Positions 6,480 through 27,236 are shown, numbered from the stretch's first letter. The stretch is 64,000 bases of DNA from an uncultured Candidatus Saccharibacteria bacterium (GCA_964371255.1 CAYJKV010000002.1:66553-130552), one strand, 5' to 3'. The notes: a model not told the origin generated them from the sequence alone. Program-made: numbers and translations.

Positions 6480-6528
6480 AAACTTATCCTGCCACTGACT
6501 TATGGCGGCCGCAACCCTCACTCAGAGC

Positions 6529-11718: not shown

Positions 11719-13026
11719 TTATTTGGGACGCAATATAGTGCGCAACATCCCGTCTAAGTCCCCTGCGCTAAAAGCAATGGCTATTCCGAAAGATCCGGCC
11801 GCTTTCGTTAAGACATTATTCATGGCCTCGCCCTTTTTAACCTCTGCAATAAATATATTGTCCTTCTGCCAGCCGTTAATTAAATCAGTTTTTAGCTGCC
11901 CGGCCTGTGCGTCTGTATTTTCTCTTCCGCGCGGCATAAAAATTGGCGTTAGAATCACCCCGTCAGCTTTCCTAAAGGCACTAAGAAATTCCGGCAGGAA
12001 ATTTCGCAATCTTTCTTGCGTATGCGGTTCAAAGATTGCCACGATCCTTTGTTGTGGATATTTTTCTCTGGCCGCTTCCAACGTACGGGCAATCTCCGTC
12101 GGGTGATGGCCATAATCGCTGATTACTTCCATGCCTTGCCAGTCTCCCAATCTTTCAAACCTGCGTTTGATGCCGGTGTATGAGGCCAGATAGCCCGCCA
12201 GCTTTTGTTCCTCAGCGCCGGCCCAGCCTGCTATCCGCATGGCGATTAAGCCGTTCGTCTTCATATGTTGCCCGGGTGTACTTACCTGTACCTGGCTAGC
12301 CTCTTGTTCATCTAATACAATCGTATTGGCCGGCCATTCTACGGTCGGATGGTTTTGTTGTATGCCTTTCAATGTCATCACTACCCCAGCTTGTTTTCTA
12401 TGCCTGATAAACTTGCTATACGCTTCCTCTGTTTGTTCGAGCGAATTAAAAAAGTCCGGGTGGTCGAAGTCAATCGATGTGATAGCTATCAAGTCAGGCC
12501 TTAATGTTAAAAAATGTTCCCGGTACTCATCAGCCTCGAGCACTAAAATGTCGTTCGCGCCCATTCGCGCGTGTCTGCCTCCCCATTCCCGCATCGCTGC
12601 GCCAATCAACACAGTCGGATCGAGTCCCGCCGCAATCATAATATGCGCTGCCATGGCACAGGTTGATGATTTACCGTGCGTTCCGGTAACGGCGACCACG
12701 CGCTTGAAGCCTTTGGCAAAATTGCCGACTGCCGCCTGGTAATTTATTTCGCGCTTCAGATCACGGGCTGCCTGTCGCAGCCTGTGCTCTTGGTCGACCG
12801 CGTCTGAAAAAATCACCTCCGTAAAACCGCTCATTTGCTGTTTGAATTTTTCCTCATCAACCAGTTTGAACGGTTCGTCCTTCAGTAATTCCTTGGTCTC
12901 TTCAAGCTTGGCATCAGTGCCCACGACGTCTAAATCCTGCTGGCTTAATAGATATGCCAACCCGCGCATGCCGCTGCCGCCGATACCCACCATTCCCACT
13001 TTTTTCTGGCTTTGGCCCAACCTCAT
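11719..13026 (-). CDS. murC: UDP-N-acetylmuramate--L-alanine ligase
   Basis: 435 aa with VGIGGSGMRGLA, the Mur-ligase P-loop AVTGTHGKSST, and DYGHHPTE (the DYAHNP-type motif of MurC/MurD). Confidence 0.92.
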   Translation of the reverse strand: MRLGQSQKKVGMVGIGGSGMRGLAYLLSQQDLDVVGTDAKLEETKELLKDEPFKLVDEEKFKQQMSGFTEVIFSDAVDQEHRLRQAARDLKREINYQAAVGNFAKGFKRVVAVTGTHGKSSTCAMAAHIMIAAGLDPTVLIGAAMREWGGRHARMGANDILVLEADEYREHFLTLRPDLIAITSIDFDHPDFFNSLEQTEEAYSKFIRHRKQAGVVMTLKGIQQNHPTVEWPANTIVLDEQEASQVQVSTPGQHMKTNGLIAMRIAGWAGAEEQKLAGYLASYTGIKRRFERLGDWQGMEVISDYGHHPTEIARTLEAAREKYPQQRIVAIFEPHTQERLRNFLPEFLSAFRKADGVILTPIFMPRGRENTDAQAGQLKTDLINGWQKDNIFIAEVKKGEAMNNVLTKAAGSFGIAIAFSAGDLDGMLRTILRPK

Positions 13027-14246
13027 GCCTTGTCTTTTACAACCAGCTCAGCCTGCTTTTTCATCGCTTTTCTTATGGACTGGAAGGGTACCAAGCCCCT
13101 GGCTAGCCTGAAGGTCAGCTGCGCGATATCTCGCGCTGCGTTTGGATAATCAAACCGGCCAATATTCTGGCGCAGTACTTCCCGGATCTCCTTATCGTCT
13201 AATAGATTTCGGATATTTTGCAATAAAATATTACGTCCCAGATTTTCTTGACTGATCACCCGTACGGCTTCGGCTACTTCCATAATTTGCGCGTTTATCC
13301 TTTGGTGGTCTTGGGCCGCATTGGCCAGGGGGATGAGAATCGCTGCTTTTCGTAAATGTGCTAATTCCGCTAATGAGGTGGCGCCGGCTCGTGATATCAC
13401 TAAGTCAGCGGCCATTAGAGCCGCGCCCATCTTATCCGTCAACGCGCCAAATATTTTATATTTTTCTTGCCGACCAACCGATCGTAATATTCGATCAGCT
13501 TCGGTTTTAACGGCGGCTGCGTTAGTGACGCCTGCTAAATGAATGAGACCGGCCTGGGTGATTAATTCCGGTAAAATTTGCAGTGTTAACTCATTGATCT
13601 TCGCTGCTCCCTGGCTGCCCCCCATAATCAATACGACCGGTTCGGTTTCTTCAAAACCAAATAAACGCTTGGCGCTCGCGCTCGTTTCTCGCGCCAGACC
13701 CGGCCGCACGGGCGTCCCCGTCACGATGGTCTTTCTCTGGTGGTAACCCATGTCATGACGCGTCGCCGCGAAACCCACCGTAATAACTTGGGCCCAATTG
13801 GCTGTCAGCCGATTAGCCAAACCTAAAACGGCATCCGACTCGTGCACCAATAATGGAATACGATAAACAAACGCCGCTACGCAAACCGGTATACTCCCAT
13901 AGCCGCCTTTGCTTATCACGGCGTCCGGCATGATCCGCCACATTTGCCAGAGGGCTTTACTCAATCCGATCGGCAAGCGCCACAATATGTCGGTGACCGT
14001 TTGCCAGGCCGCGTAACGGCGCAGTTTTGCCGCCGGTATGTTAATTGTTTTCAGTCCCAACCTGTTAAAAAATTCACTATTCTGCTTATCCAACACTCCT
14101 AAGAAGTAGATATCTAATCGTTCACGGTCAATCCAAACTGGTAATTGGTCCTTGGTTTCCTGATGAACTGTCCTCAACATTTCCACCAGGGGTTCTAAGG
14201 GGATCATATGTCCGCCGGTGCCGCCGCCTGTCAATACAATGCGCAT
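13023..14246 (-). CDS. murG: undecaprenyldiphospho-muramoylpentapeptide beta-N-acetylglucosaminyltransferase
   Basis: 407 aa with MRIVLTGGGTGGHMIP and a GT28 C-terminal domain (IMGGSQGA). 4-nt overlap with murC. Confidence 0.92.
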   Translation of the reverse strand: MRIVLTGGGTGGHMIPLEPLVEMLRTVHQETKDQLPVWIDRERLDIYFLGVLDKQNSEFFNRLGLKTINIPAAKLRRYAAWQTVTDILWRLPIGLSKALWQMWRIMPDAVISKGGYGSIPVCVAAFVYRIPLLVHESDAVLGLANRLTANWAQVITVGFAATRHDMGYHQRKTIVTGTPVRPGLARETSASAKRLFGFEETEPVVLIMGGSQGAAKINELTLQILPELITQAGLIHLAGVTNAAAVKTEADRILRSVGRQEKYKIFGALTDKMGAALMAADLVISRAGATSLAELAHLRKAAILIPLANAAQDHQRINAQIMEVAEAVRVISQENLGRNILLQNIRNLLDDKEIREVLRQNIGRFDYPNAARDIAQLTFRLARGLVPFQSIRKAMKKQAELVVKDKA

Positions 14247-14358
14247 AATACTTGATTTCCTAATTTATCTTTTAATATATCACCTTATCTGCATCCTACC
14301 TCATTAACCTGTCAATATAAATCATCGATCCCAATCCCTTCTTCGCTATTTACTCGCT

Positions 14359-15504
14359 CTACTCTTGTGTATATTGGCTGATATTGAGCAATACCCCTGA
14401 TGCGAATAGCAACGTCGCTAGCGCTGAACCGCCGTAGCTGATAAATGGCAAAGGAATGCCGGTTAATGGCGTCAGGGCTAAAATTGACCCGATATTAATA
14501 AAAGCCTGCAATAAAATCCAAGCCGTTATGCCGGTCGCCAGCAGACGCCCAAAAACATCAGGGGCCTGCCGCGCGATCAACCAGCCCCGCCAGCCAATTA
14601 AGCCGAATACTAATATAACCAAGATTGATCGAATCAATCCAAACTCCTCAGCTAAAACAGCAAAAATTGCATCACCAGCCGGCTCTGGTAAATAGTAATA
14701 TTTTTGTCGGCTGCGCCCGAATCCCAAGCCCCACAAACCGCCAGTCCCAACTGCCAATAAAGCTTGGTTTATCTGATAACCAATCCCTTGCGGATCCAGT
14801 TCGGGATGCAAATAAACCATAATTCTCTCCAAGCGATAACGTGCTGTATTTAAAAAGACAGCGAACACGGCCAGTCCACCCAAGGCAATCATTATTAAAT
14901 GGCGCAACTTAAAACCGGCTACGAAAATCATGCTGGACGCCATCAGAGTAATTAACAGGAGCGTTCCCATGTCCGGCTGCATCATGATTAAGGTGCTAAG
15001 GATTGCCATCATAATCAAAAAAGGGATGACACTCTTCTTGAAATCCTTGACATCCTCACCCTTTTTCTCCAGCAATGCGGCTAAATATAAAATAAACGCT
15101 AACTTCGCTACCTCCGTGGGCTGCAGGGTTAAAGGCCCAATACCAATCCAGCGTGATGCCCCTCCCGCCGATACTGATAATCCAGGTACAAATACTAGCA
15201 CTAATAAAACCAAAGCCAACACAATAGCTGGGAACGCCAATCGTCTCCAGAATCGATAGGGTACAAAATAACCTACTAAAAACGTACCTAGTCCTATCAG
15301 GCCGCCATATAACATCTGGTGCTTCACGAAATAAAAAGCATCATTAAAGTATTTTTGTGCTAATACGGACGAGGCCGAAGCCAGCATCAGCCACCCAAAC
15401 ACCGTGATGCCGGCAATGGCCAACAACAACAAATGATCCCCGGCGTGCTTATGAATTTGCATGCTTGGTTCTGCTATATTATTTTTTTTAGTTACCTTAC
15501 GCAT
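14359..15504 (-). CDS. ftsW: SEDS-family peptidoglycan polymerase / lipid II flippase FtsW/RodA
   Basis: Polytopic protein with SEDS signatures (QINQALLAVGTGGLWGLGFGRSRQKYYYLPEPAGDAIFAVLAEEFG). The start proposed at the ATG at 15504 (MRKVTKKNN) abuts the murD stop; the maximal ORF starts at 15558. Confidence 0.85.
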   Translation of the reverse strand: MRKVTKKNNIAEPSMQIHKHAGDHLLLLAIAGITVFGWLMLASASSVLAQKYFNDAFYFVKHQMLYGGLIGLGTFLVGYFVPYRFWRRLAFPAIVLALVLLVLVFVPGLSVSAGGASRWIGIGPLTLQPTEVAKLAFILYLAALLEKKGEDVKDFKKSVIPFLIMMAILSTLIMMQPDMGTLLLITLMASSMIFVAGFKLRHLIMIALGGLAVFAVFLNTARYRLERIMVYLHPELDPQGIGYQINQALLAVGTGGLWGLGFGRSRQKYYYLPEPAGDAIFAVLAEEFGLIRSILVILVFGLIGWRGWLIARQAPDVFGRLLATGITAWILLQAFINIGSILALTPLTGIPLPFISYGGSALATLLFASGVLLNISQYTQE

Positions 15505-16903
15505 GCTTCTGCAAATTCCTGACCGCCTCTTTAAACTTATTTCCACGATCAAACTCATTCTTGAAAGAACTAAAACTAGTGGCGCCTGGAGACAGTAGTA
15601 CTATATCTTCAGCTTGGGCAATCTGTGCCGCACGGCGTACAGCGTCCGCCATGTCTGTCGCACTTTCGGCTTGGCTGCGTCCGCCAGCCCGTTCATACGC
15701 TTGCGCCATTTTTTCCGTCGCTGTTCCGGGCAACCAAATAATATGCCTGACATTAGCGATCGCTTCTTGCTGCGCCCAGGGTGCGAACTCCAGTACCTTA
15801 TCATTACCTCCTAAAATATGGACGATGGTTTTTCCTTGCAGCGCAGCTAAGGCTGCGATTGTGGCATCGGGCATGGTGGCGGCGGAATCATTAATGAATT
15901 CTACCTTGCCTATCACCGCTACTGTCTCCATGCGATGCGGTAACAATTTTACTTTTCGAAGTGCGCCGATGATTTGTTCCTTGTCCATCCCCTGTTGCCA
16001 AGCCAAATAAATGGCTGGTAATAAGTTACGAATTTCGTGTTCATATCTGGCGGGTAGCTCGTCTGTGTCCATCAGCCTTTCTTCACCCTTCAGTTCGCGT
16101 ACCATCACATGATTATGCTTGATGAAAATTCCTCTGGTTTTGTAATCCTTGATTGAATAACTTATGACTTGGCTGATCAGCTTGGTTGACCACGCGCGCA
16201 ATCTCTCATCGTCGAAGTTTAATATCGCCCTATCCGTCGGTTGCTGCCATTTAACAATTATTTTCTTTACATCCATATACTCTTCCCAGGAGGCATACGT
16301 GTTCAAGTGGTCTCGATAAATGGCAGTGATGATTGCTGTCCCCGGACTGATTTGTTGTGCCGCCAAAGGTTCTAACCGCCAGCTTGATAACTCAAAAACA
16401 ACTTTCTTGTCGTTATTAAGTTGCTCAAGTTGCAGTAATGGCGACGTACCTTCAATACCGATTGCCGGAATACCTAGTAATGCGGCGATGGCAGTCGTGG
16501 TGGTAGATTTTCCTTTCGAACCAGTAACGCCAATGATTCGGCGCCGGTCAAACCACCGGAAAAATAAACTACTGTCCATCTCTACCGGCACCCCAGCTGC
16601 TCGAGCGCGCAACAAGAATGGTAGATTTCGGGGAACTCCGGGATTAATTATAACCAAATCAGCCCTAGTAAAATCCTCGGCCCGGTGCTCACCTAGCACC
16701 CATTCAATCCCCTTATCCTGTCCGACCATTTTGATACTCTCCGCCAATTGTTCTGCATTCTTCAGGTCAGTCACCACCAACCTAGCGCCTTGTTTATGTA
16801 ACCAAAGTATATTACCGATTGCCCCTCCATGTTCTCCCAAACCAACAACCGTCACTCGTTTACCCTTGACATCATTCATCTTGCTCCAATCATTTAGTCT
16901 CAT
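15497..16903 (-). CDS. murD: UDP-N-acetylmuramoylalanine--D-glutamate ligase
   Basis: 468 aa with KRVTVVGLGEHGGA (N-terminal Rossmann fold), the P-loop IIGVTGSKGKSTTT, and a C-terminal Mur-ligase domain. Confidence 0.9.
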   Translation of the reverse strand: MRLNDWSKMNDVKGKRVTVVGLGEHGGAIGNILWLHKQGARLVVTDLKNAEQLAESIKMVGQDKGIEWVLGEHRAEDFTRADLVIINPGVPRNLPFLLRARAAGVPVEMDSSLFFRWFDRRRIIGVTGSKGKSTTTTAIAALLGIPAIGIEGTSPLLQLEQLNNDKKVVFELSSWRLEPLAAQQISPGTAIITAIYRDHLNTYASWEEYMDVKKIIVKWQQPTDRAILNFDDERLRAWSTKLISQVISYSIKDYKTRGIFIKHNHVMVRELKGEERLMDTDELPARYEHEIRNLLPAIYLAWQQGMDKEQIIGALRKVKLLPHRMETVAVIGKVEFINDSAATMPDATIAALAALQGKTIVHILGGNDKVLEFAPWAQQEAIANVRHIIWLPGTATEKMAQAYERAGGRSQAESATDMADAVRRAAQIAQAEDIVLLSPGATSFSSFKNEFDRGNKFKEAVRNLQKHA

Positions 16904-16948
16904 GTTTTTTTCATTCCTTATGCCTCGTTTACTCTACGTCTCGATACG

Positions 16949-18010
16949 TTACATTCCCAACAAACCAACCAGTAAACCGAGGGCTGAACTAACCGCCGCC
17001 ATAATCCAAAAACGCATGGTCACTTTTGTTTCCGGCCAACCAATTGCCTCAAAGTGATGATGTATGGGGGCAGATAAAAATATCTTCTTGCCTCGCCACT
17101 TTTTTGACAACACCTGGATGATGACAGAAATAGATTCCAGCACGAGCGGAAACGCGATAATCGGCAAAACCAAAGCAGAATTGGTCAACATGGCAATGAT
17201 GCCCAGGGTCGTTCCCAAACTCATGGCGCCGGTATCCCCCATAAAGAACCGCGCGGGATGTACGTTGAACCATAAGAAAGCGAGCAGCCCGCCGCCAATG
17301 GCGGAGCAGAAAATAGCTAACTCCATTCTTTCCATCCCAAAGGAGAGTGCCGCGTATGCAGCATAACAGAATAATAGAATTCCTCCCGCTAAACCATCTA
17401 ATCCGTCGGATTCATTCACAGAGAAGGCCGTAGCGACAATCACCAGTATAAATATCGGAACATACCATAAACCAATTTCAAAATCGCCGAAGTAAGGGAC
17501 GTGCAGCAAACTCCAGTCCAGTTTGAAATAAAACCACCAAGCCCCAATCGCAGCCACGGCCGTATATAACAACAAACGGTGCCGCATATTCAATCCGCCG
17601 CCATCCGGGCCGATTTTTCTCACATTAAGATAGTCATCCAACAAACCGACTAAGGCAGAACCAAGTAGTGCTCCTAGTGGCAGCAACGTTTGCGCCCGAC
17701 TTAAAAAATTTAATTGCTGCGTAATCCATGAAGGCCAAATAATACTTAATAGCCAAAAGAATACGGCCATCATCGTCACCGAAACCCAAACAATTATCCC
17801 GCCCCCGACTGGTGTGCCGGCCTTAGCGGCGTGTAGCTTCGAATAAATCGGTGTTTGGCCGGAGCTTCTGATGCTTTTCCCAAAATGGTATTTATATAAA
17901 AAATGCGTTAGTAGAGGCGTCATCCCAAACGCTACTAAAAACGTTAGGATCCCCATAATCACAATCCGGCCGACATCAATTACTAGATCAATGTTTTCAA
18001 ACTCATGCAT
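16949..18010 (-). CDS. mraY: phospho-N-acetylmuramoyl-pentapeptide transferase
   Basis: 353 aa polytopic protein with GTPVGGG, NESDGLDGLAGG and FFMGDTGAMSLG, the MraY/GT4-family polyprenyl-phosphate transferase signatures. Confidence 0.93.
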   Translation of the reverse strand: MHEFENIDLVIDVGRIVIMGILTFLVAFGMTPLLTHFLYKYHFGKSIRSSGQTPIYSKLHAAKAGTPVGGGIIVWVSVTMMAVFFWLLSIIWPSWITQQLNFLSRAQTLLPLGALLGSALVGLLDDYLNVRKIGPDGGGLNMRHRLLLYTAVAAIGAWWFYFKLDWSLLHVPYFGDFEIGLWYVPIFILVIVATAFSVNESDGLDGLAGGILLFCYAAYAALSFGMERMELAIFCSAIGGGLLAFLWFNVHPARFFMGDTGAMSLGTTLGIIAMLTNSALVLPIIAFPLVLESISVIIQVLSKKWRGKKIFLSAPIHHHFEAIGWPETKVTMRFWIMAAVSSALGLLVGLLGM

Positions 18011-18057: not shown

Positions 18058-18960
18058 TTACGGCCATTCATAACTGCGTTGCACCCATTCCACTACTGTT
18101 TTAATGTCCTGGAATCTTGATTCACTGCCCAAGACCACCGCCCCGATCCTTTGCCCTTTATCGCCATAAGTCATGACGACCAGGTTTTCTCCCGCCTCAG
18201 TGGTGTATCCTGTTTTAGCTGCCAAGACCGGAAAGTAAGTACCCAGCAGTTGATTAGTTGATTTGAATTTACGTGTTGCTCCGTTCTTGGTCGTTAGTGT
18301 ACCGTCTTCGGAAACCAAGAAGTTGCGCAATATTTTATCCCGATAATTGAGTTGAAACAATTCTTTGATGTCCCTAGCTGTCGAGTATTGTTCACCTCCA
18401 GCTAGGCCGGTCGCGTTGCTGATTTTTGTCGAATAAATACCGTTTTGTTTGATGAATCCATTTGCGGTATATACGAATTCATCTTCTGATCCTGATAAAC
18501 CATACGCCAAACTAACCATCGCATCATTAGCCGAAGCAATTAAGCCAGCGGCTAATAAGTCATCCGCCGACACCACGTCGCCGACCGGTAACTTAATGTT
18601 CGCGCCCATGCGCTGTGCCTTCAATGCCTCTGGTGGTATGGTCACCATCGTATTCATTGGCAAATATTTTCGTATCGTTAAAGCGGTGACTAATTTGCTT
18701 AGACTGGCTACCGGTCGTTTTTCATCAGCATTTTTTTCATACAAAATTATCCCAGTGGATTCATCCCAAACCAAGACTGCTCTAGCCGATAATACCACGT
18801 CAATCGCCTCGCCAGTTTTCATCGGCACCACCGGCCCATTAGTTACCCCCGCCACCGCCCCGGCATCTGTTGTCGACATTTTATCCTGAAGACAATCACT
18901 GCTTTGGTTGCTAACCAATAAGCAACTAATAATAACCACGGCCATGTTTAAGATCGACAT
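18058..18960 (-). CDS. D-alanyl-D-alanine carboxypeptidase (S11 / PBP5-family low-molecular-weight PBP)
   Basis: 300 aa with a signal-like N-terminus, SxxK (ASLSKL), SxN (SANDA) and KTG (KTGYT) active-site motifs. Confidence 0.8.
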   Translation of the reverse strand: MSILNMAVVIISCLLVSNQSSDCLQDKMSTTDAGAVAGVTNGPVVPMKTGEAIDVVLSARAVLVWDESTGIILYEKNADEKRPVASLSKLVTALTIRKYLPMNTMVTIPPEALKAQRMGANIKLPVGDVVSADDLLAAGLIASANDAMVSLAYGLSGSEDEFVYTANGFIKQNGIYSTKISNATGLAGGEQYSTARDIKELFQLNYRDKILRNFLVSEDGTLTTKNGATRKFKSTNQLLGTYFPVLAAKTGYTTEAGENLVVMTYGDKGQRIGAVVLGSESRFQDIKTVVEWVQRSYEWP

Positions 18961-18967
18961 ACTCAGC

Positions 18968-19786
18968 TTACTGATTGGCTTGTCGCCCAGCCGGTTGCGC
19001 GCGGTATTTCCAGAAATATTTTAAAGCTGACTTGATGTGCTCCCGCATTACCCAGTTAGTTGCTAGTCCCCACAAACCCCCATGCTCGCTGGTCCTCTGG
19101 TGGTAATGCGAAAACTTAGCCGTCGGCAAGTACTGAACCTTCCACCCCTTCATCCAAAACCTCCGGCACCAATCGACATCCTCGAAATAAAGGAAGAAAT
19201 TCTCATCCATGCCGCCCACTTGCTCTAAAGCTCTGGCATTAACCATCAGGCATGCACCCATTAACCAATCCACATCAGTGGGCGTCTGATGGTCATAATC
19301 TTTCATTAGAAATTTACGAACGGCCTGCTGTCCATTTTTTGTTTTACCCAACCACGTCCGCCGATATAGTACAGTTAATGGCCGGTAAAATTCATAACAA
19401 GAATATTGCAGCCGGCCGTTCGGTGAAAACAATTTACCGCCCAGGATACCTACCGCCGGATTCGCTTCCATGTATTCAATCATGGACATAATCGCTCCCT
19501 CCAAAACGACGATATCAGGGTTCAATATCAGCCTAAACTCTCCGGTGGTTTCCTTCAGGCCAACATTCACTCCGCCGGCTAGACCCATATTCCTGGCATT
19601 GCTTATCACTCTTATTTCTGGCCACTCAGAACGCAATAACTCCACGCTTTCATCAGCCGAAGCATTGTCCACTATCACAATCTCATATGGCCACGATAAC
19701 GTCTGCTTTAGAATCGATTGTACGCATGCTCGCGTCAGCTGGCCGGTATTATAGTTGACTATAATGATTGATAATTTCATGCCCAT
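18968..19786 (-). CDS. glycosyltransferase family 2
   Basis: 272 aa with LSIIIVNYNTGQLTRACVQSI...VIVDNASADES and the DxD region LNPDIVV, a GT-A fold. Confidence 0.8.
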   Translation of the reverse strand: MGMKLSIIIVNYNTGQLTRACVQSILKQTLSWPYEIVIVDNASADESVELLRSEWPEIRVISNARNMGLAGGVNVGLKETTGEFRLILNPDIVVLEGAIMSMIEYMEANPAVGILGGKLFSPNGRLQYSCYEFYRPLTVLYRRTWLGKTKNGQQAVRKFLMKDYDHQTPTDVDWLMGACLMVNARALEQVGGMDENFFLYFEDVDWCRRFWMKGWKVQYLPTAKFSHYHQRTSEHGGLWGLATNWVMREHIKSALKYFWKYRAQPAGRQANQ

Positions 19787-19797
19787 ATTCTTGAAAA

Positions 19798-20766
19798 CTA
19801 TCTATCTTCTTCGTGGTTATTCTGCCGCCAGTTAATTCGTTTATTCATAATTTTAGGGATGCCCATGACTGTCTCTACCAGCGTTGCTAGTAACGGCCAG
19901 TATACCGCGCCTAGCACCACAAAACCAAGTAACCGTATATCAACAAAGATTTCATGCCGCAGCGCATCTTTAACGGACGCGTTCTTTAGCATCATCCACA
20001 ACCAATTGCGCAGACCATATCGCGTTCTCTTGTCGCGTAATTTCTTAATCAGTAATACTATCCCTTCTCTCCAATTAGCGGCTGTTATTTTACCGAAGCC
20101 CCGGGCATGCACTCCCTGGGTAACGGCCACATATTTACATAGCCACCCTGCCTTCCTAAGACGCCAACCCAAATCCACATCTTCCTTATAAGCAAAAAAG
20201 TCCTCATCAAATATCTGACCATCGTTGCCCCGTACGTCTCGCAGGGCCGCCATTCTAAAACAGCCCGCGGCGCCAGTCACCGCTGCAAGCTCACGACTTT
20301 GTTGATATTGACCTGTATCGATTTCCCCTTCGCCAATCTCTTTGCCATTTAATGTCCAGGTCATCGCAATACCAGTGGAATCAATAATGTCTTGTCCTTC
20401 ACTATTTTTCCCCTTCAATAATTTGCCTTGTACTGCGCCGACTTTTTCATCGTCAAAAGCAGCTCGTAGCATCGACAAGCTTTCTTTAGCCAACACCAAA
20501 TCCGGGTTATGTAGCAGCACTAATTCTGTCGCACATTGCTTGAATCCGATATTATGGGCGGCGCCGAATCCCGTATTACGATCCAGACATATAATATCTG
20601 CTTTCGGTAACATTTGTTTGACAGTTTCCACTGATTCGTCAGACGAGTTATTATCGATATACCGAATCGTTATATCGTCTGGATAAGATGCTAATTGGCT
20701 CAAAGCCTTGGGTAATTCTGTGGCACTATTCCAGCCAACGATTTGAATGGTGAGAGTTTTTTCCAT
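19798..20766 (-). CDS. glycosyltransferase family 2
   Basis: 322 aa with IQIVGWNSATELPK...YIDNNSSDES, NPDLVL and a C-terminal amphipathic/TM segment. Confidence 0.75.
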   Translation of the reverse strand: MEKTLTIQIVGWNSATELPKALSQLASYPDDITIRYIDNNSSDESVETVKQMLPKADIICLDRNTGFGAAHNIGFKQCATELVLLHNPDLVLAKESLSMLRAAFDDEKVGAVQGKLLKGKNSEGQDIIDSTGIAMTWTLNGKEIGEGEIDTGQYQQSRELAAVTGAAGCFRMAALRDVRGNDGQIFDEDFFAYKEDVDLGWRLRKAGWLCKYVAVTQGVHARGFGKITAANWREGIVLLIKKLRDKRTRYGLRNWLWMMLKNASVKDALRHEIFVDIRLLGFVVLGAVYWPLLATLVETVMGIPKIMNKRINWRQNNHEEDR

Positions 20767-20842
20767 AATTGTTGTTTATGCTGCTTCCTTTCAATATATG
20801 GCCTAGTCAAAATTACGTCACTTTATTACTCCTAACACACCC

Positions 20843-20870
20843 TTGCTTCACTCAACGTAAGGTGTATAAC
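20843..20870 (+). promoter_or_regulatory. candidate promoter TTGCTT-N16-TATAAC upstream of the MurF-like gene
   Basis: Hexamers at 20843..20848 and 20865..20870, about 24 nt before the ATG at 20894, inside a divergent intergenic region. Confidence 0.3.
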
Positions 20871-20893
20871 CCATCCATACGCAAAATACAACC

Positions 20894-22423
20894 ATGGACA
20901 CCATAACCTTAATTAGCCTTCTGCTGGCCACACCAACTATAATCTTTTCTGCCCTATCACAAATATATGTCTGGCAGCGCAAAGAATATCGGTGGGACCG
21001 GGTTCGCGCTGAACTCTCTGAGCGTGGGCTGTCGGCATCTGTTCTAATAATGTCTTTGGCTTATGTGCTGGCTCTCATCTCCTGGTGGTTAAACTTTCCC
21101 TTGCTGGCTGTTCTTTCTCTTGCCCTGTTTCTCTTGCCCTACCTCTGGCGCCTTTTTACCCGGGGGATTTTTCGTCCTGACTGGACAAACAAAGCGCGTT
21201 TGGTCGGGCTCATTGAAGGTGTTGCTCTCTCCCTGCTTTGGCTTATAATTCTCTTCTCTTCTAGTCGTCAGGCAGTTAACTTATTAATCCTGATTATTAT
21301 CGTCACTCCTTTGACGGCCCTCTGTGTCGGTTTGGTGAATTGGCTGACCAACCCTTATAAACGCCGCGTTATTGCCCGGAGCCTCGTTCTTCGTCGCAGT
21401 CTCCCGGACTTGACCGTGGTCGGTGTTACCGGTAGTTATGGTAAAACAACAACTAAGCATCTTTTATCTGTTCTGGTGCCCTCGGCTGTCGTTTCCAGTG
21501 AGCACCGCAATTCTCCTTTCGTTATCGCTCAAGACATGCAGCAACAACTGTCCGATCAGACCAAAGTCTATATCGTGGAAATGAGCGCCTACCGTTCAGG
21601 AGAAATCCGAGAGTTGACTAATCTGACTATGCCAACCGTGGGCGTTATCACCAATATTAGCAACCAGCACCTGGCCCTATTTGGGTCGCTGCCAAAACTA
21701 ATCCAGACAAAATGGGAATTAATTAAGGCGCTACCTTCTTCCGGTATTGCGGTGCTCAATGCGGATGATCATAACCAGATAGTTCAGGCCCATTCCTATC
21801 CTGGCAAGATTTATTGGTTTTCCGCTACTAAACCGGCGGATGTCTATGCTAGTCGCGTCTCTTATTTGCCCGATCAGATTATTTTCCAGCTTCACCTGTT
21901 TTCTCGCGCCTACCCCGTGACCGTACCTTTGCTGAGCGAGGCATACCTGACCAGCCTCTTGGCCGCTGTGACGACGGCCTTAGCGGTCGGGACACCGCCA
22001 GCTGATATTATTAGCCGCCTGCCCTTACTTATGCCATATCCTCGCACTATGCAATTATTAACCGGCCCTTCCAACAGCCAAATTATCGATGATAGTTATT
22101 CAGCTAACGAACAATCCGTTCTGAATGCGCTTCGTCACTTACAGCGTTTTTCCGCCGTTGATCGACGGGTAATCATGGTGCCATTAATTGAATTAGGACC
22201 GACCGCTAAGGCCGTTCATGAGCGGATTGGTTTAGCACTCAAAGCAGCTGGTGCTAAGGTATATGTCTATGGCAGCGCTTGGCATCGCGAGCTTGACCAG
22301 CCATATTTTGCTAATCCTCGTTCTCTTAGAAAAATAGCCTGCCAGAATATATCAGCCCGCACAGTTATTTTACTCGAAGGGCGGATTCCGCCCTTAGTTC
22401 ATCAAGCCTTACATCTTTCCTAG
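20894..22423 (+). CDS. MurF-like Mur ligase (central and C-terminal domains) with an N-terminal ~170-aa polytopic membrane domain replacing the usual N-domain
   Basis: 509 aa. Residues 1-170 are hydrophobic with about 5 predicted TM helices. From residue ~175 come the Mur-ligase P-loop VVGVTGSYGKTTTKHLL and central-domain motifs (TNISNQHL). The C-terminal IIDDSYSANEQS is the MurF-type DDSYNANP signature, unlike the DYAHNP of MurC/MurD. Confidence 0.7.
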   Translation: MDTITLISLLLATPTIIFSALSQIYVWQRKEYRWDRVRAELSERGLSASVLIMSLAYVLALISWWLNFPLLAVLSLALFLLPYLWRLFTRGIFRPDWTNKARLVGLIEGVALSLLWLIILFSSSRQAVNLLILIIIVTPLTALCVGLVNWLTNPYKRRVIARSLVLRRSLPDLTVVGVTGSYGKTTTKHLLSVLVPSAVVSSEHRNSPFVIAQDMQQQLSDQTKVYIVEMSAYRSGEIRELTNLTMPTVGVITNISNQHLALFGSLPKLIQTKWELIKALPSSGIAVLNADDHNQIVQAHSYPGKIYWFSATKPADVYASRVSYLPDQIIFQLHLFSRAYPVTVPLLSEAYLTSLLAAVTTALAVGTPPADIISRLPLLMPYPRTMQLLTGPSNSQIIDDSYSANEQSVLNALRHLQRFSAVDRRVIMVPLIELGPTAKAVHERIGLALKAAGAKVYVYGSAWHRELDQPYFANPRSLRKIACQNISARTVILLEGRIPPLVHQALHLS

Positions 22424-22443
22424 CACCCATATCTATTAATCCT

Positions 22444-23682
22444 ATGCCAATTACCATTTCCCTTTCTCCCAATACACAATCCGATGATGTCTGGCGGGCT
22501 ATGCAAATTTTATTCTCGCCCTGGCGCTGGTCGGACAAAAAAGTTATTGATCAGATCTTACCCATCCTCTCTAAACACTTAGCTAATCGACCAGCTGTCT
22601 TAGTCTCCTCCGGACGTACCGCCATTTATCGCACATTGGAAGCGCTCGGCATTGGCCTGGGTGACGAAGTAATTATTCAAGCCTTCACCTGTCTGGCCGT
22701 TCCCGCTCCTATCCTATGGCGTCATGCCATACCGGTTTATGCCGACATTGATCTCTCAACTTATAATTACAACCTGGCGGATGTCGCAAAAAAAATCACT
22801 CCTCGCACCAAGGCCATCATTGTCCAACATACCTTTGGTATCGCCGGGCCGCTTGCTGGCCTCCGCCAATTAGCCGACCAACACCACCTTACTTTAATCG
22901 AAGACCTGTCGCACGCTTTTGGCGCTTTCTCTAAAGACCACCCGCTCGGCACTTTCGGACATGTGGCTATCTTAAGTTTCGGTCGTGACAAAACCATTTC
23001 CTGTGTCTACGGCGGAGCGATCGTCAGCATAGATGCTGGTCTGATTAAACATATCTCTGCTATTCAAGACTCCTTGCCGCTCGCGCCCGCCTGGTGGGTA
23101 ATACAACAATTGTTGCATCCGATCTTGATGTCGCTGATCGTCCGCTTTTATTTCTGGGGCAGTATTGGCAAAATATTTTTGGTGGGCGCGCAAAAACTTA
23201 AACTACTTAGCATGGCCGTAACCAATAACGAAAAGCTTGGCGGTCAACCCGCGTTTATTAATTGGCAGTTTTCTCCTGCGCTAGGCTTTTTGCTCCGGCA
23301 TCAACTGGGTAAATTCGGGCGGTACACTGCCAGACGTCAGGCCATTGCCCAGCAATATTTGACTCAGCTTCCGGCCGCCAAACAACTTACGCCCGCCAAC
23401 AAACCCAATTGGCTGCGCTTTCCTTTGCGCGTTAAAAACCGAACCCCATTATTGAAGTACGCCCGCCAACATCATATTTTGCTGGGCAATTGGTATGATC
23501 AACCCGTCACCCCGATTAGTTGCCAAGCACCTCATGTCTCTGGCTATCTTCCCGGTTCCTGCCCACAGGCGGAACTGGCAGCTTCTACTACCATCAACTT
23601 ACCGACTAATCCCAGTCTTTCTGACCACCAGATTTCCGAGATTATTGCGGTTTTATCCAAAGCCCGCTGGGCGCGTATTTAA
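22444..23682 (+). CDS. DegT/DnrJ/EryC1/StrS-family PLP-dependent sugar aminotransferase
   Basis: 412 aa with SSGRTAIYRTLEALGIG...GDEVIIQAFTCLA and the Schiff-base lysine region SFGRDKTIS, typical of aminotransferases acting on keto-sugar nucleotides. Confidence 0.8.
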   Translation: MPITISLSPNTQSDDVWRAMQILFSPWRWSDKKVIDQILPILSKHLANRPAVLVSSGRTAIYRTLEALGIGLGDEVIIQAFTCLAVPAPILWRHAIPVYADIDLSTYNYNLADVAKKITPRTKAIIVQHTFGIAGPLAGLRQLADQHHLTLIEDLSHAFGAFSKDHPLGTFGHVAILSFGRDKTISCVYGGAIVSIDAGLIKHISAIQDSLPLAPAWWVIQQLLHPILMSLIVRFYFWGSIGKIFLVGAQKLKLLSMAVTNNEKLGGQPAFINWQFSPALGFLLRHQLGKFGRYTARRQAIAQQYLTQLPAAKQLTPANKPNWLRFPLRVKNRTPLLKYARQHHILLGNWYDQPVTPISCQAPHVSGYLPGSCPQAELAASTTINLPTNPSLSDHQISEIIAVLSKARWARI

Positions 23683-23699
23683 TTTGCCACCTTATATCT

Positions 23700-24716
23700 A
23701 TGGACATTCATCCAATATCCGATCAGCAGTCATGGAACAACTTTGTCCTCTCCTGTCCTGATCAATCATTCCTGCAATCGTGGCAGTGGGGCCAGGTGCA
23801 GCGTCAAATGGGTGAGCCCGTCGATTATTTAGGCTTTTTCTCTGCTGACCGTTTGATTGGCGTTGCCTTGATTATCACTGTGCGCGCGCGGCGAGGTTGG
23901 CACTATCTTGTACCGCATGGTCCCCTAGCCGCGAACAATGAAACAATGCGAAGAATCATTCCTTTCTTAGTTGATTATTTAAGACAACACGCACCGCGTC
24001 GTCTTTCTGCCATCCGTCTCGCTCCTTTCTTGCCGTCGACCCCCGAGCATACCGATTTTTTTAAGCATCAGCGTTTTATCTCTGCTCCTTTGCACGTTCA
24101 CGCGGAACAAACCTGGGTGCTCGATATCAATCGTCCGGACGCTGAATTACTGGCGGGTATGCGGAAAACTACGCGTCAGGCTATTCGAAAAGCCCAACAA
24201 CAAAATGTGACAGTTGAGCTTGTCACCGACGACGCGGCCCTACCTGTTTTTTGGGAACTCTATCAACAAACTAAACAGCGTCACCATTTTGTACCGTGGT
24301 CACATGACATGCTCGCCGCGCAGCTCTCCGTCTTTTCCGCCGCCAATAATGTATTTTCAGTCACTGCTCGCGTCGCTGATCGCCCGGTAGCGGCGGCTAT
24401 CCTAATTCATTTTGGCCATACGGTTTATTATTACCATGGTGCTTCCATCAGGCTGCCCAATGCCGCGCCTGCCAGCCAATTACTACAGTGGCACGCTATT
24501 CAAACAGCTCGCGCTCGCCAGGCTAACCTTTACAATTTTTGGGGTATTGCGCCAGACAACCAACCGCACCACCCTTTTGCCGGCATTACTACTTTTAAAA
24601 AGGGCTTCGGTGGTCGAGCTGTTAATCTTCATCACGCGCAAGACCTGCCCTTAACTTGGCGCTACTGGCCTTTGTTTATAATTGAAAAATCACGCCAGCT
24701 GCGCCGCGGTTTTTAA
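23700..24716 (+). CDS. FemAB-family aminoacyl-tRNA-dependent peptidoglycan peptidyltransferase (FemX-like)
   Basis: 338 aa with the N-terminal FemAB signature FLQSWQWGQV...GW...PHGP and two GNAT-like halves of the FemAB fold. Confidence 0.7.
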   Translation: MDIHPISDQQSWNNFVLSCPDQSFLQSWQWGQVQRQMGEPVDYLGFFSADRLIGVALIITVRARRGWHYLVPHGPLAANNETMRRIIPFLVDYLRQHAPRRLSAIRLAPFLPSTPEHTDFFKHQRFISAPLHVHAEQTWVLDINRPDAELLAGMRKTTRQAIRKAQQQNVTVELVTDDAALPVFWELYQQTKQRHHFVPWSHDMLAAQLSVFSAANNVFSVTARVADRPVAAAILIHFGHTVYYYHGASIRLPNAAPASQLLQWHAIQTARARQANLYNFWGIAPDNQPHHPFAGITTFKKGFGGRAVNLHHAQDLPLTWRYWPLFIIEKSRQLRRGF

Positions 24717-24870: not shown

Positions 24871-26343
24871 TTATTCTTCTTGATCGCCGCGTTCACTGTC
24901 TGTCAAAATGACCTGCCTGCTGGCTGCCGTTAATCCGGCCACAATCCAAAACATCGCGTTGGTCGGCCAAATATCCCAAATGTCAATAAAAAACGCCTGC
25001 ATAACAAAGGCTGCCAGCCAACCAACTCCCCACAAACCAATGATTTTACTGGTCGCGTTCGTGGCGCCGATTGTGTCGAAACAACTCAGCAAAAAACGCC
25101 AATATAACCAGCCATATAATAATAAACCAGCTAAACCCATCTCGACCATTGTTTTCAAGTATTGGTTGTCAACCAAGGTCTGGTTCTTGATCAACTGCAC
25201 GTCGCGGCTATTGCCCGTCGCGATGTCATAAATCTGAATATCATCTTGTCTGAAATTTTGCATCATCACGTCACCCAGTCCCTTGCCTACTAACGCTTCC
25301 GTGTTGGTCATGGGTCCGATTAGTCTCGCCATAAATTGCAGCCGCTCCTCGTTACTGGCATAACGCGGGTCGATAAATGATCGGACGTAAATACCGGCGC
25401 GTGTGTAGTGCATCATGCCCAAGGTTCCGCCAACCATAATCACGCCGGCCACTACAATGATTTTTACTAAGGATTTCCGGCTCATTGTCTTGGCTAGCTC
25501 TGTCATGCCCCAAGTGACAATTACCGCACTCATGCCGACTATGAATCCTATCCAAACAGCCCTTGAATAAGTCAGCCAGATGAACGGTAAAATTATCAGC
25601 CACAAGCCCAGCCAAACCAACCGCTGCTTTTTATTAGTCCAAACCATGCCTATGGCAGCCACTAATAAGCAAATACTGACGATGTACTGACCAAAAATAC
25701 TGGGATGTGCCAGTGTGCTGGAAATTCTGGGGATCCAAATCATTCGCACCGGGTCAAATCGCAGCACCGCGCTATCCATGGCCCATAACCACTGATAAAT
25801 ACCTAGTAGCGCCACCACCCCCGCACTATTTAATAACCAGACTAATCGCTGCTTCATCCGTTGCTGTGAATGCGGTAGATACAGTACTCCGAAGTATAAG
25901 AAAGCGTAAATAATAATATCTCGGGCTCGCAGGATTCCCAGCACTAAACCATTATCTGCCCGCAGCGCCTCCATGCCAGTCCAAATTATCAACCAGATAA
26001 TTGGTGTTGTTAGCGCAGCTCTCCGGTAGGGCAATGTTTGCCTGATAATTGGCCAAAGAAATTGCCGTGTGAATAAAGTAACAATAATTACATCTTTAAC
26101 CAGCGTGGCCGTACCAATAGTTTGCGTTATCTTCAGCATTGGCAGGATCGGCGCTAACACTATCAGCAGCCACAATCCTTGTTCCGGATTTTGCCAAACC
26201 CACCAGGCCGTGGCCATAAACAATAGACAGAAAAATCCCAACTGCCAACTCAGAAACACTGCAATAAAACTTGCTACCAAACCGGCTACTATAATCCAAC
26301 TGATACTATTCACCGACTCTTGCCAACGAGATGTCATGTTCAT
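24871..26343 (-). CDS. O-antigen ligase/polymerase-like (Wzy_C-type) polytopic membrane protein
   Basis: About 490 aa with at least 10 TM helices and a Wzy_C-like motif region (LTYSRAVWIGFIVGMSAV). The start chosen at the ATG at 26343 avoids the 49-nt overlap with the upstream GT2 gene; the maximal ORF starts at 26397. Confidence 0.5.
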   Translation of the reverse strand: MNMTSRWQESVNSISWIIVAGLVASFIAVFLSWQLGFFCLLFMATAWWVWQNPEQGLWLLIVLAPILPMLKITQTIGTATLVKDVIIVTLFTRQFLWPIIRQTLPYRRAALTTPIIWLIIWTGMEALRADNGLVLGILRARDIIIYAFLYFGVLYLPHSQQRMKQRLVWLLNSAGVVALLGIYQWLWAMDSAVLRFDPVRMIWIPRISSTLAHPSIFGQYIVSICLLVAAIGMVWTNKKQRLVWLGLWLIILPFIWLTYSRAVWIGFIVGMSAVIVTWGMTELAKTMSRKSLVKIIVVAGVIMVGGTLGMMHYTRAGIYVRSFIDPRYASNEERLQFMARLIGPMTNTEALVGKGLGDVMMQNFRQDDIQIYDIATGNSRDVQLIKNQTLVDNQYLKTMVEMGLAGLLLYGWLYWRFLLSCFDTIGATNATSKIIGLWGVGWLAAFVMQAFFIDIWDIWPTNAMFWIVAGLTAASRQVILTDSERGDQEE

Positions 26344-26348
26344 AACAG

Positions 26349-27236
26349 TTAACCTCTCATTTTTTGCCGCCATTGCTTCATCGAGGCCGGTATCCACAAA
26401 CTAACATTGATGATACTCAATAAGTAAATCAGCATAACAGACGGTGTATTAAAATATTTTCTAGTGTAGCGCAACATACTCTTTAACCACGGCCAATTCT
26501 TTCGGATGCCAATTACCTGCCGAAAACTGACCCCACCCAAATGAATGCCTCGGGCGCTTGGCGTATACCACACTTCCCAGCCCAAATCTGCCGCCCGGTG
26601 ACAATAATCCACTTCCTCAAACCAGACGAAAAATCCGTCATCAAGATACCCCACCTGCTGCCCGCACGTATTCCTAATAAGAAAAATCGCTCCCATGACT
26701 TGATCAACCCTCTGCTCCTGATCGTAATTAATCGTTGCCTCCTTCACCATCAAGCCCAGCTTAAGGGTGAAATAAACCATGTCCTTGGTATTTGGGAAAT
26801 GTCTGACGGAAGGTTGTAGTGTCTGATCGCTGTTTAGGATTTTTGGCCCCACGATCCCGATGCGTTCGTGACGATCCAGCAAGGATACCAAATTGGCTAT
26901 CATCCCAGGCAACGCGACCGTGTCCGGATTTAACAATAAAACGTGGGCGACCGATCCCCGCTCTTGCTGCCTCCTTAAGCCGATATTATTAGCGGCCGCA
27001 AAGCCTAGATTCCGGTCATTCATGATAAACCTGACGGCCGGTTTGTTGTTCAGGTCTGATACCGCCTGTTTTGCCTCGACCACAGATCGATCATTCGACG
27101 CGTTATCGACAACTATTACTTCCTCAATCATTTGCCTCTCCGGCAGGGCCGCTAGTGATCGCACACAATCTGCCAGACAGTGGCCGGTATTCCAGTTCAC
27201 TATTATAATTACGACCGTGCGGTTATCTGCAGTCAT
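26349..27236 (-). CDS. glycosyltransferase family 2
   Basis: 295 aa with VVIIIVNWNTGHCLADCVRSL...VIVVDNASNDRS and LLLNPDTV, a GT-A fold. Confidence 0.8.
   Translation of the reverse strand: MTADNRTVVIIIVNWNTGHCLADCVRSLAALPERQMIEEVIVVDNASNDRSVVEAKQAVSDLNNKPAVRFIMNDRNLGFAAANNIGLRRQQERGSVAHVLLLNPDTVALPGMIANLVSLLDRHERIGIVGPKILNSDQTLQPSVRHFPNTKDMVYFTLKLGLMVKEATINYDQEQRVDQVMGAIFLIRNTCGQQVGYLDDGFFVWFEEVDYCHRAADLGWEVWYTPSARGIHLGGVSFRQVIGIRKNWPWLKSMLRYTRKYFNTPSVMLIYLLSIINVSLWIPASMKQWRQKMRG

Follow-up and report, generated by a model that had tools for sequence, protein, structure and literature searches.

A MurF-type ligase with a five-helix membrane domain in place of domain 1, encoded beside DegT-type and FemAB-type genes in Patescibacteria

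Introduction

MurF is the ATP-dependent enzyme which adds D-Ala-D-Ala to the N-acetylmuramic acid (MurNAc)-tripeptide precursor of peptidoglycan. In textbooks the Mur ligases are soluble enzymes of the cytoplasm, and domain 1 is their accepted handle for the substrate linked to uridine diphosphate (UDP); in canonical MurF it is this soluble domain which holds the UDP end of the substrate. Described here is a MurF-type ligase with a transmembrane (TM) domain, TM-MurF, which is encoded in a stretch of 64,000 nucleotides from an uncultured Candidatus Saccharibacteria bacterium (GCA_964371255.1, CAYJKV010000002.1:66553-130552; this whole stretch is called the window). Its gene is followed by the genes of a DegT-type enzyme dependent on pyridoxal phosphate (PLP) and of a FemAB-family transferase, a trio to which a sequence-only reading of the window had drawn attention. 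Judged by its sequence, TM-MurF is derived from MurF and MurF-like in its predicted action, and it is probably the lineage's own housekeeping D-Ala-D-Ala-adding MurF, which became an integral membrane protein when domain 1 was exchanged.

Mur ligases fused to other proteins have been described before. A survey of natural Mur chimeras lists MurE-MurF, MurC-Ddl, MurC-MurB, MurG-MurC, MurD-FtsW, and MraY-MurG, and mentions no MurF with a membrane domain (PMC10214165). As only proteins of more than 600 amino acids from named species were sampled, the survey did not cover the TM-MurF family (PMC10214165). The chimeras resemble TM-MurF in being fusions of Mur ligases, and MurD-FtsW tethers a ligase to a polytopic membrane protein, but the part fused in TM-MurF is not a known pathway enzyme, and it takes the place of a domain where the chimeras gain one.

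Two further groups of the Mur ligase family come close to the architecture considered here. MurT of the MurT/GatD pair is a soluble protein which amidates D-iGlu together with a glutaminase and acts on a membrane-bound precursor. It has the Mur ligase fold without the UDP-binding domain, works with a partner, and its model NF052464 matches TM-MurF with an E-value of 4e-5; this sequence similarity is weak, whereas TM-MurF is clearly MurF-like. CapB/PgsB, the poly-gamma-glutamate synthetase, is a Mur ligase family member which is anchored to the membrane at its N-terminus. In TM-MurF, by contrast, the anchor is a conserved domain of five TM helices, the genomic context consists of peptidoglycan genes, and no PgsB or FolC model matches.

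The partner genes also have characterised relatives. The third gene of the trio shares the fold family of the branching enzymes FemX, MurM, and FemAB and is of FemX-like size (338 amino acids), but the characterised systems show no permanent linkage to a murF and a DegT gene. The second shares the PLP fold and the lysine motif of the DegT/DnrJ/EryC1/StrS sugar aminotransferases such as ArnB, QdtB, and PseC, from which it differs by an insertion of about 48 partly hydrophobic residues and by the lack of a partner gene for keto-sugar formation.

In a full-text literature search, which covered subscription journals thinly, no account was found of the TM-MurF architecture, nor of DegT and FemAB genes being linked to it, and a study of protein families enriched in the Candidate Phyla Radiation (CPR) does not mention it (Méheust et al. 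2019). Annotation pipelines already label the protein MurF; what is undescribed as far as searched is the architecture with the membrane domain. The earlier statement that the arrangement was not a described one holds for the literature searched, while the protein itself is not rare and occurs in many lineages of the Patescibacteria.

The ligase domains of TM-MurF

TM-MurF is a protein of 509 amino acids encoded in a single open reading frame (20894..22423, + strand) which joins a polytopic membrane part to central and C-terminal ligase domains of the MurF type. The central, ATP-binding domain (21425..21976, + strand) contains the P-loop VGVTGSYGKTTTK (T179-G-S-x-G-K184, invariant in the family) and the conserved residues E229, H259, K273, and E275, all of which have counterparts in E. 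coli MurF. The C-terminal domain (22049..22291, + strand) contains a P-x-x-E-L-G motif (P430, E433-L434-G435) and H442, and just upstream of it lies the sequence DDSYSAN (residues 399–405). That both domains were kept, with the P-loop and the sequence DDSYSANEQS, had been read from the DNA beforehand and was confirmed.

Profile searches assign these domains to MurF. In Pfam, Mur_ligase_M (PF08245) matches residues 178–361 with an E-value of 3e-28, and Mur_ligase_C (PF02875) matches residues 386–466 with 29.1 bits, barely over its cutoff of 28.4. The top NCBIfam model is TIGR01143 (murF) with 189.1 bits, as compared to 86 bits for murD and 56–71 bits for the murE models, and TIGR01143 was also the top model for all 22 members of the TM-MurF family which were tested. 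PgsB and FolC models were absent from the NCBIfam matches of the window protein and of these 22 members. A CapB- or FolC-type identity of the ligase was ruled out in this way, the best matches being MurF throughout and not FPGS or CapB.

The best sequence matches among proteins of solved structure are MurF without exception (P. aeruginosa 1e-26, E. coli 5e-26). E229, H259, and K273 align with the motifs IELGA, AAHL, and AKAKGE of the E. coli enzyme and are invariant across an alignment of 82 TM-MurF homologues with 31–63% identity; the catalytic roles of the glutamate and histidine and of the carbamylated lysine position are established for the Mur ligase family. DDSYSAN aligns with DDSYNAN of E. 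coli MurF, the form DDSY(S/N)AN being kept, like the P-loop, in the alignments to both the E. coli and the P. aeruginosa enzyme, the sequence P-L-I-E-L-G with its xELG motif aligns with GDMAELG, and H442 aligns with the histidine which follows there.

The fold points the same way. An AlphaFold2 model of TM-MurF calculated from the 82-sequence alignment forms a single body with a mean predicted local distance difference test (pLDDT) score of 95 and a predicted template modelling score (pTM) of 0.92. When it was compared with the Protein Data Bank by Foldseek, the closest structures were the MurF entries 4qf5, 4cvm, 1gg4, and 3zl8 with E-values from 4e-24 to 3e-21 over about 366–370 aligned columns. 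The top entry, 4qf5_B, reached an E-value of 4e-24 and a target TM-score of 0.70 over 366 columns; the nine best matches are all MurF, and structures of MurE and MurC rank behind them. The comparison with 1GG4, which had been proposed as a check on what replaces the N-terminal domain, placed this structure among the closest; in the model a domain of five TM helices stands where MurF has that domain.

As compared to canonical MurF (E. coli 1GG4, P. aeruginosa 4CVK, A. baumannii 4QF5), TM-MurF thus has the same central and C-terminal domains, the P-loop, the aligned catalytic Glu, His, and Lys, the DDSYxAN and xELG motifs, and, in several lineages, a place next to mraY in the division and cell wall (dcw) gene cluster. 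It differs in that the soluble domain 1 of about 75–100 residues is swapped for a domain of about 165 residues with five TM helices and invariant motifs, which makes it an integral membrane protein, and in that its score lies under the TIGR01143 cutoff. The alignment to TIGR01143 begins only at profile position 74, from which it follows that the MurF domain 1 is absent, and in the Pfam scan no match to PF01225, the family of the domain 1 type, was obtained. Because it fails on both domain 1 and the score cutoff, TM-MurF is better classed as a MurF of variant structure than as a standard member. The suggestion of a noncanonical, membrane-associated MurF is well supported by the profile matches of all 22 members, by the fold, and by the position of the gene in the murF slot of several lineages, immediately or almost immediately ahead of mraY.

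The N-terminal membrane domain

The N-terminal membrane domain comprises residues 1–172 (20894..21409, + strand) and stands in place of MurF domain 1, in agreement with the polytopic membrane segment which had been noticed in the sequence. Kyte-Doolittle analysis gave five strongly hydrophobic segments in residues 1–160, and the AlphaFold2 model likewise has five membrane helices, which were placed at about residues 3–24, 48–66, 69–89, 99–120, and 126–150, with a short cytoplasmic helix at residues 34–43. The helices of the model itself span residues 3–29, 34–43, 48–66, 69–89, 99–120, and 126–168; the last of these is predicted as one continuous helix which leads from the fifth membrane segment to the start of the ligase domain.

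Two motifs stand out in the alignment of the 82 homologues. The first, W27-Q-x-K-E-Y-R-x-D-R36 (20972..21001, + strand), lies in cytoplasmic loop 1; Q28, K30, E31, Y32, R33, D35, and R36 are invariant, and W27 is found in at least 90% of the sequences. The second, G91-x-x-R94-P95-x-x-T98 (21164..21187, + strand), lies in cytoplasmic loop 3, with R94 and P95 invariant and G91 and T98 in at least 90%. The median number of lysines plus arginines in the successive extramembrane segments across the family is 0/5/0/4/0/6. By the positive-inside rule these counts place the N-terminus outside, the ligase in the cytoplasm, and both invariant motifs in cytoplasmic loops. With these conserved motifs the membrane region is more than hydrophobic filler.

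No Pfam match and no structural relative of the membrane domain was found. A profile of the N-terminal 160–170 residues was searched against 1.84 billion cluster representatives and matched 657 clusters (clustered at 50% identity) at E <= 1e-3, 160 of them at E <= 1e-10. In the full-length matches the membrane domain is N-terminal in proteins of about 500–600 amino acids, and ten of ten distant matches consisted of TM helices plus Mur_ligase_M, with or without the C-terminal domain. The short matches inspected break off within the TM or the ligase domain and are fragments. Since full-length and distant matches are fused and the short ones inspected are fragments, the domain is seen only in fusion to the ligase. 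A free-standing family of TM proteins was rejected as a source of these matches, no stand-alone copy of the domain having been seen.

The DegT and FemAB partner genes

The three open reading frames lie on the + strand where the sequence-only reading had put them, with gaps of 20 nucleotides between TM-murF and degT and 17 nucleotides between degT and femAB, and are co-transcribed as an operon. The divergent intergenic region of 127 bp (20767..20893) separates TM-murF (+ strand) from a glycosyltransferase family 2 (GT2) gene on the - strand; a scan of the operon region including this interval for promoter and terminator consensus sequences gave no enrichment over shuffled sequences.

The second gene (22444..23682, + strand) encodes a DegT/DnrJ/EryC1-family PLP enzyme of 412 amino acids (PF01041, 1.7e-54) with the Schiff-base lysine motif SFGRDK, which is conserved in 66 DegT homologues. 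When aligned to QdtB (3frk) it shows an insertion of about 48 partly hydrophobic amino acids within residues 209–280 (23068..23283, + strand). The insertion is absent from the solved enzymes of the DegT family, of which the closest match the window protein with 90–94 bits in phmmer, and is conserved in the 66 homologues, all from Patescibacteria; the best 120 matches of the homologue search are all close relatives from this group. Its maximal Kyte-Doolittle hydropathy (KD19) has a median of 1.56, which is borderline for a TM segment. The protein had been called a sugar aminotransferase. The match to the DegT family stood, but the label goes no further than the family, as no equivalog cutoff was approached: the best NCBIfam model, ArnB (NF008658), gave 112 bits against a cutoff of 631, and others scored lower.

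The third gene (23700..24716, + strand) encodes a putative aminoacyl-tRNA-dependent transferase of the FemAB family (PF02388), of FemX size with 338 amino acids. Pfam matches are FemAB (PF02388, 1e-33) and Acetyltransf_6 (PF13480, 1.9e-19), so that the succession of a DegT-type and a FemAB-family neighbour was recovered as claimed. The protein scores far under every curated equivalog cutoff, FemX (NF047883) for example with 36.7 bits against 500; its best NCBIfam match, with 57 bits, is the exopolysaccharide-associated PEP-CTERM FemAB type, and weak matches in the Protein Data Bank are to S. aureus FemX and FemA (FemX 6snr, 4e-6).

Distribution in Patescibacteria

A search of a collection of 5.8 billion proteins returned 895 relatives of TM-MurF. 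The best 120 of these are nearly all full-length, with 33–63% identity and 480–600 amino acids, and their named sources are mostly Candidatus Andersenbacteria. Database labels of the relatives read MurF, "Mur ligase family protein", or "hypothetical". A pattern scan with one genome per species found a relative in at least 235 GTDB species genomes; the best 80 of these 235 come from Andersenbacteria, Kerfeldbacteria, Spechtbacteria, Nealsonbacteria, Gottesmanbacteria, Microgenomates, Parcubacteria, Gracilibacteria, Peribacteria, Peregrinibacteria, and "Altimarinota", and in 78 of the 80 loci the match extends into the QxKEYRxDR motif. Some relatives are in genomes labelled as unrelated phyla, presumably by binning or labelling errors. 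The architecture is widespread across the Patescibacteria (CPR) and not an oddity of one genome.

Genomic context in the window and in related loci

In the window TM-murF divergently adjoins a dcw-type block on the - strand (11719..18010) which contains murC (11719–13026), murG (13023–14246), ftsW (14359–15558), murD (15497–16903), and mraY (16949–18010), and neither murE nor murF. The longest reading frame of ftsW overlaps the end of murD by 62 nucleotides (15497–15558); the true start of ftsW is probably further downstream, as in the shorter FtsW calls of related loci. Between mraY and TM-murF lie, on the same strand, a gene similar to S11 D-Ala-D-Ala carboxypeptidases (dacA-like, 18058–18960) and two GT2 glycosyltransferase genes (18968–19786 and 19798–20766). 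A murE or a second murF was found neither in the 64-kb window, where every other reading frame of at least 150 amino acids was scanned, nor within about 10 kb beyond either end, which upholds the earlier remark on the missing murE and murF.

The order of the window, whose source is itself a patescibacterium of the Candidatus Andersenbacteria type, is kept in Andersenbacteria-type loci down to 37–44% identity. One strand of these loci reads murC-murG-ftsW-murD-mraY-dacA(-scpB-scpA)-GT2-GT2, TM-murF-degT-femAB runs divergently to it, and the dacA-like and the two GT2 genes (18058..20766 in the window) are syntenic in all of them. The three genes of the module are contiguous in 53 of the 59 loci which have at least 2.7 kb of sequence downstream of TM-murF, and in more distant lineages they remain side by side among other neighbours, with no dcw genes near them (L005). 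The co-occurrence in related genomes which had been proposed as a check was observed, and this synteny, loci far from dcw genes included, supports the functional linkage of the three genes.

Loci of the Microgenomates type are the most informative. A cluster from Gottesmanbacteria (L075), in which the genes were checked with NCBIfam, reads ftsI-murE-pgeF-murC-murB-murA-glmU-like-glmS-hydrolase-TMmurF-degT-femAB-(121 aa)-mraY-ftsW-murG-ftsQ-ftsA, without a second murF beside TM-murF. According to phmmer two further loci (L064, L037) have the core order murE-murC-murB-murA-hydrolase-TMmurF-degT-femAB-mraY, and two others (L080, L085) show the part from TM-murF to murG as in L075. In all five loci the murF slot of the dcw cluster is taken by TM-murF; in Microgenomates-type loci it has the place which belongs to murF in ordinary dcw clusters. 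In two loci (L066, L084) TM-murF is followed directly by mraY-ftsW-murG, without DegT or FemAB genes. The flanks of the 80 related loci contain no second murF, and murE was found there only in a short form, in four of them.

This short MurE (L075:489-1745; also in L064, L037, and L083) has about 400–430 amino acids and matches MurE models only from profile position ~89 on, that is, without domain 1. An in-frame stop codon lies 12 nucleotides upstream of the murE start in L075. The best 120 homologues all have 356–429 amino acids and only the Mur_ligase_M and C domains, and the search returned only proteins from Gottesmanbacteria and Microgenomates.

Several smaller features accompany the module outside the window. 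An alpha/beta hydrolase gene, of which the window has no copy, is located upstream of TM-murF outside the Andersenbacteria in 32 of the 69 loci with room for it (upstream regions in L034-L087, e.g., L086:4949-9909, L075:9225-9947, and L005:9285-10004), and in six loci a second FemAB paralogue lies between the hydrolase and TM-murF. A seryl-tRNA synthetase (SerRS) gene is found nearby, upstream of TM-murF, in 17 of the 80 loci, usually with a gene similar to class-II lysyl-tRNA synthetase (LysRS); these neighbours are possibly a clue to the aminoacyl-tRNA which serves the Fem enzymes as donor, or possibly a coincidence. Small reading frames inside the module include a 68-amino-acid DUF5652 protein between TM-murF and degT (L005:11641-11847) and the 121-amino-acid frame between femAB and mraY (L075:13945-14310). 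The pgeF gene between murE and murC of L075 has a counterpart in the window, where a gene of the PgeF/YfiH family (Cu-oxidase_4) is found at 37821-38513 and a SpoIID-domain gene at 33990-35432.

Possible role and alternative explanations

If TM-MurF is the housekeeping MurF of its lineage, its substrate would by default still be UDP-MurNAc-tripeptide, a lipid-linked precursor being the main alternative. The cytoplasmic loops, rich in Arg, Lys, Glu, Asp, and Tyr, may bind the diphosphate-sugar end of the substrate in place of domain 1, or they may dock to MraY; this assumes a suitable placement of these loops with respect to the active site. Were one of these two roles true, the final step of stem-peptide synthesis would therefore be located at the membrane: the last cytoplasmic precursor step would proceed on the inner membrane face and its product would be handed straight to MraY. 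The FemX-like enzyme would add a residue derived from an aminoacyl-tRNA to the same precursor, giving a branch on the stem peptide, and the DegT enzyme would supply or modify an amine-bearing group on it.

Several points weigh against this assignment. The 189.1 bits of TM-MurF compare with a curated TIGR01143 cutoff of 288.6 bits; part of this shortfall is accounted for by the missing domain 1. With the UDP-binding domain lost, the enzyme could also have changed its substrate and not its location. A DegT enzyme as a constant companion has no place in textbook peptidoglycan synthesis, and the TM-murF module encodes no keto-sugar-forming enzyme such as a sugar 4,6-dehydratase or an oxidoreductase. 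In six of the 59 loci DegT and FemAB genes do not adjoin TM-murF, and in four of these six (L044, L046, L058, L079) none occurs within 10 kb. Finally, the search for murF covered the window, its flanks, and the related loci, and a canonical second copy may exist elsewhere in the genomes. The four loci just named are labelled Gracilibacteria, Peribacteria, or Altimarinota or are unclassified, and their match to the window protein ends at about residue 446–470.

A re-ordered pathway is the strongest alternative, though an unlikely one. Here TM-MurF would be the only MurF but act on undecaprenyl-PP-MurNAc-tripeptide, with or without GlcNAc, and not on UDP-MurNAc-tripeptide; MraY would transfer the tripeptide form, and the lipid carrier at the membrane would bear the substrate of the three remaining reactions, which are the addition of D-Ala-D-Ala, the branching of the FemX type, and that of the DegT enzyme. 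In such a pathway the invariant cytoplasmic loops would form the diphosphate-binding site, and the DegT-like and FemX-like proteins would assemble with TM-MurF in a membrane-associated complex and modify the lipid intermediate further. The domain which binds UDP in canonical MurF is indeed gone, and the invariant charged residues of the polytopic domain lie at the cytoplasmic membrane interface, where the head group of a lipid diphosphate would be. The family of the FemX-like partner includes S. aureus FemX, the lipid II:glycine glycyltransferase (PDB 6snr), the DegT partner has its conserved and partly hydrophobic insertion, and NCBIfam gives the Mur ligase homologue MurT the name of a lipid II isoglutaminyl synthase (NF052464). 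MurT acts on lipid II in S. aureus. The MurE of related lineages (Microgenomates), however, has also lost domain 1 and has gained no membrane domain, and for this reason the loss of domain 1 alone is not evidence for a substrate other than a UDP-linked one. In addition, MraY of the window is an ordinary member of its family (TIGR00445, 206 bits, over the cutoff), the gene order keeps TM-murF upstream of mraY, and the DegT insertion is only borderline hydrophobic, with a KD19 value of 1.42 in the window protein. If true, this alternative would mean a re-ordered peptidoglycan pathway in Patescibacteria with the end of stem-peptide assembly on the lipid carrier.

It is improbable that the genes belong to a separate module, in which hydrolase, TM-ligase, DegT, and FemAB proteins build or decorate another envelope glycopolymer while a canonical MurF encoded elsewhere serves peptidoglycan. 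The steps envisaged, namely, that the DegT enzyme makes an amino sugar, the FemAB protein aminoacylates the new amine with aminoacyl-tRNA as donor, and the ligase extends the peptide, are just as improbable. A precedent for pairing a PLP enzyme with a FemX-like tRNA-dependent transferase exists in DhpH of dehydrophos biosynthesis. The trio keeps together as one unit also where dcw genes are not near (L005), borders a very large glycan region in the window with a Wzy-like protein, flippases, and many glycosyltransferases, and has genes for SerRS and a LysRS-like protein upstream in 17 of 80 loci; the exopolysaccharide-associated type as best NCBIfam match of the FemAB protein (57 bits) also fits such a module. 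Against it stand the Microgenomates-type loci, which embed the trio between murA/glmS and mraY together with all other Mur enzymes and no second murF, and the two loci in which TM-murF directly precedes mraY without DegT or FemAB genes. Moreover, both the sequence and the fold of the ligase resemble MurF in particular, its C-terminal acceptor domain included, and no sugar 4,6-dehydratase or oxidoreductase accompanies the DegT gene.

An artefact, by which the gene of a separate small membrane protein would have been joined to a truncated murF through a frameshift, an assembly error, or a wrong start codon, has nothing in its favour beyond the unusual architecture and was rejected as next to impossible, since more than 80 independent assemblies show the architecture in full length and the fusion is found in hundreds of them, from different studies, the reading frame of the window is single and uninterrupted, the N-termini of the homologues align from residue 1, a continuous helix bridges the fifth TM helix and the ligase in the AlphaFold2 model (pTM 0.92), and no free-standing copy of the TM domain was seen.

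With TM-MurF taken as a relocated MurF, many lineages of the Patescibacteria, a very large and almost entirely uncultured radiation, break the rule of the soluble Mur ligase with a UDP-binding head in MurF, and at least in Microgenomates domain 1 is deleted from MurE too. This suggests that late precursor synthesis is arranged differently in space and possibly differs in its chemistry too, and it may account for the channelling of scarce precursors in cells of minimal genome size. Estimates in the part of the literature consulted put the Patescibacteria at 15–50% of bacterial species. TM-MurF is a candidate signature protein for this group, and it marks a gap in annotation, as pipelines report MurF or "hypothetical" while the membrane domain goes unrecorded.

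Further features of the window

Downstream of the trio a very large envelope-glycan region with many GT2, GT4, and GT9 glycosyltransferase genes occupies 24871-63527. It starts with a Wzy-like polymerase/ligase (24871-26397) and includes a Polysacc_synt flippase fused to a GT1 domain (879 amino acids, 29757-32396), two large membrane proteins (YfhO-like, 53037-55283; DUF6541-like, 42511-44835), two polysaccharide deacetylases, a Glyphos_transf-like gene, a second flippase, and MurJ (48379-49995). A RimK-type ATP-grasp ligase among these glycan genes (56536-57399) has weak similarity to the C-terminal domain of D-Ala-D-Ala ligase; a clear Ddl, Alr, or MurI was not seen in the window.

On the other side of the dcw-type block lies a coupling ATPase similar to VirD4/TrwB (7259-8938), which has a treble-clef zinc finger at its C-terminus. 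It is adjoined by a protein of 474 amino acids (8969-10393) which had no Pfam match in the scan and is listed as DUF8128 in a precomputed table, and this in turn by a protein which combines sigma-70 region 4 with a HARE-HTH domain (10452-11528). An alanyl-tRNA synthetase gene with a GTG start (4701-6521) encodes only 606 amino acids, with the catalytic and SAD domains; no match to the C-terminal extension was found in it. Scans of the window for tRNA genes and Rfam families yielded nothing. All 2-kb bins have a negative GC skew (-0.11 to -0.28), whatever the orientation of the genes, and because of this uniformity the whole window is assigned to one replication arm, with more C than G on the + strand.

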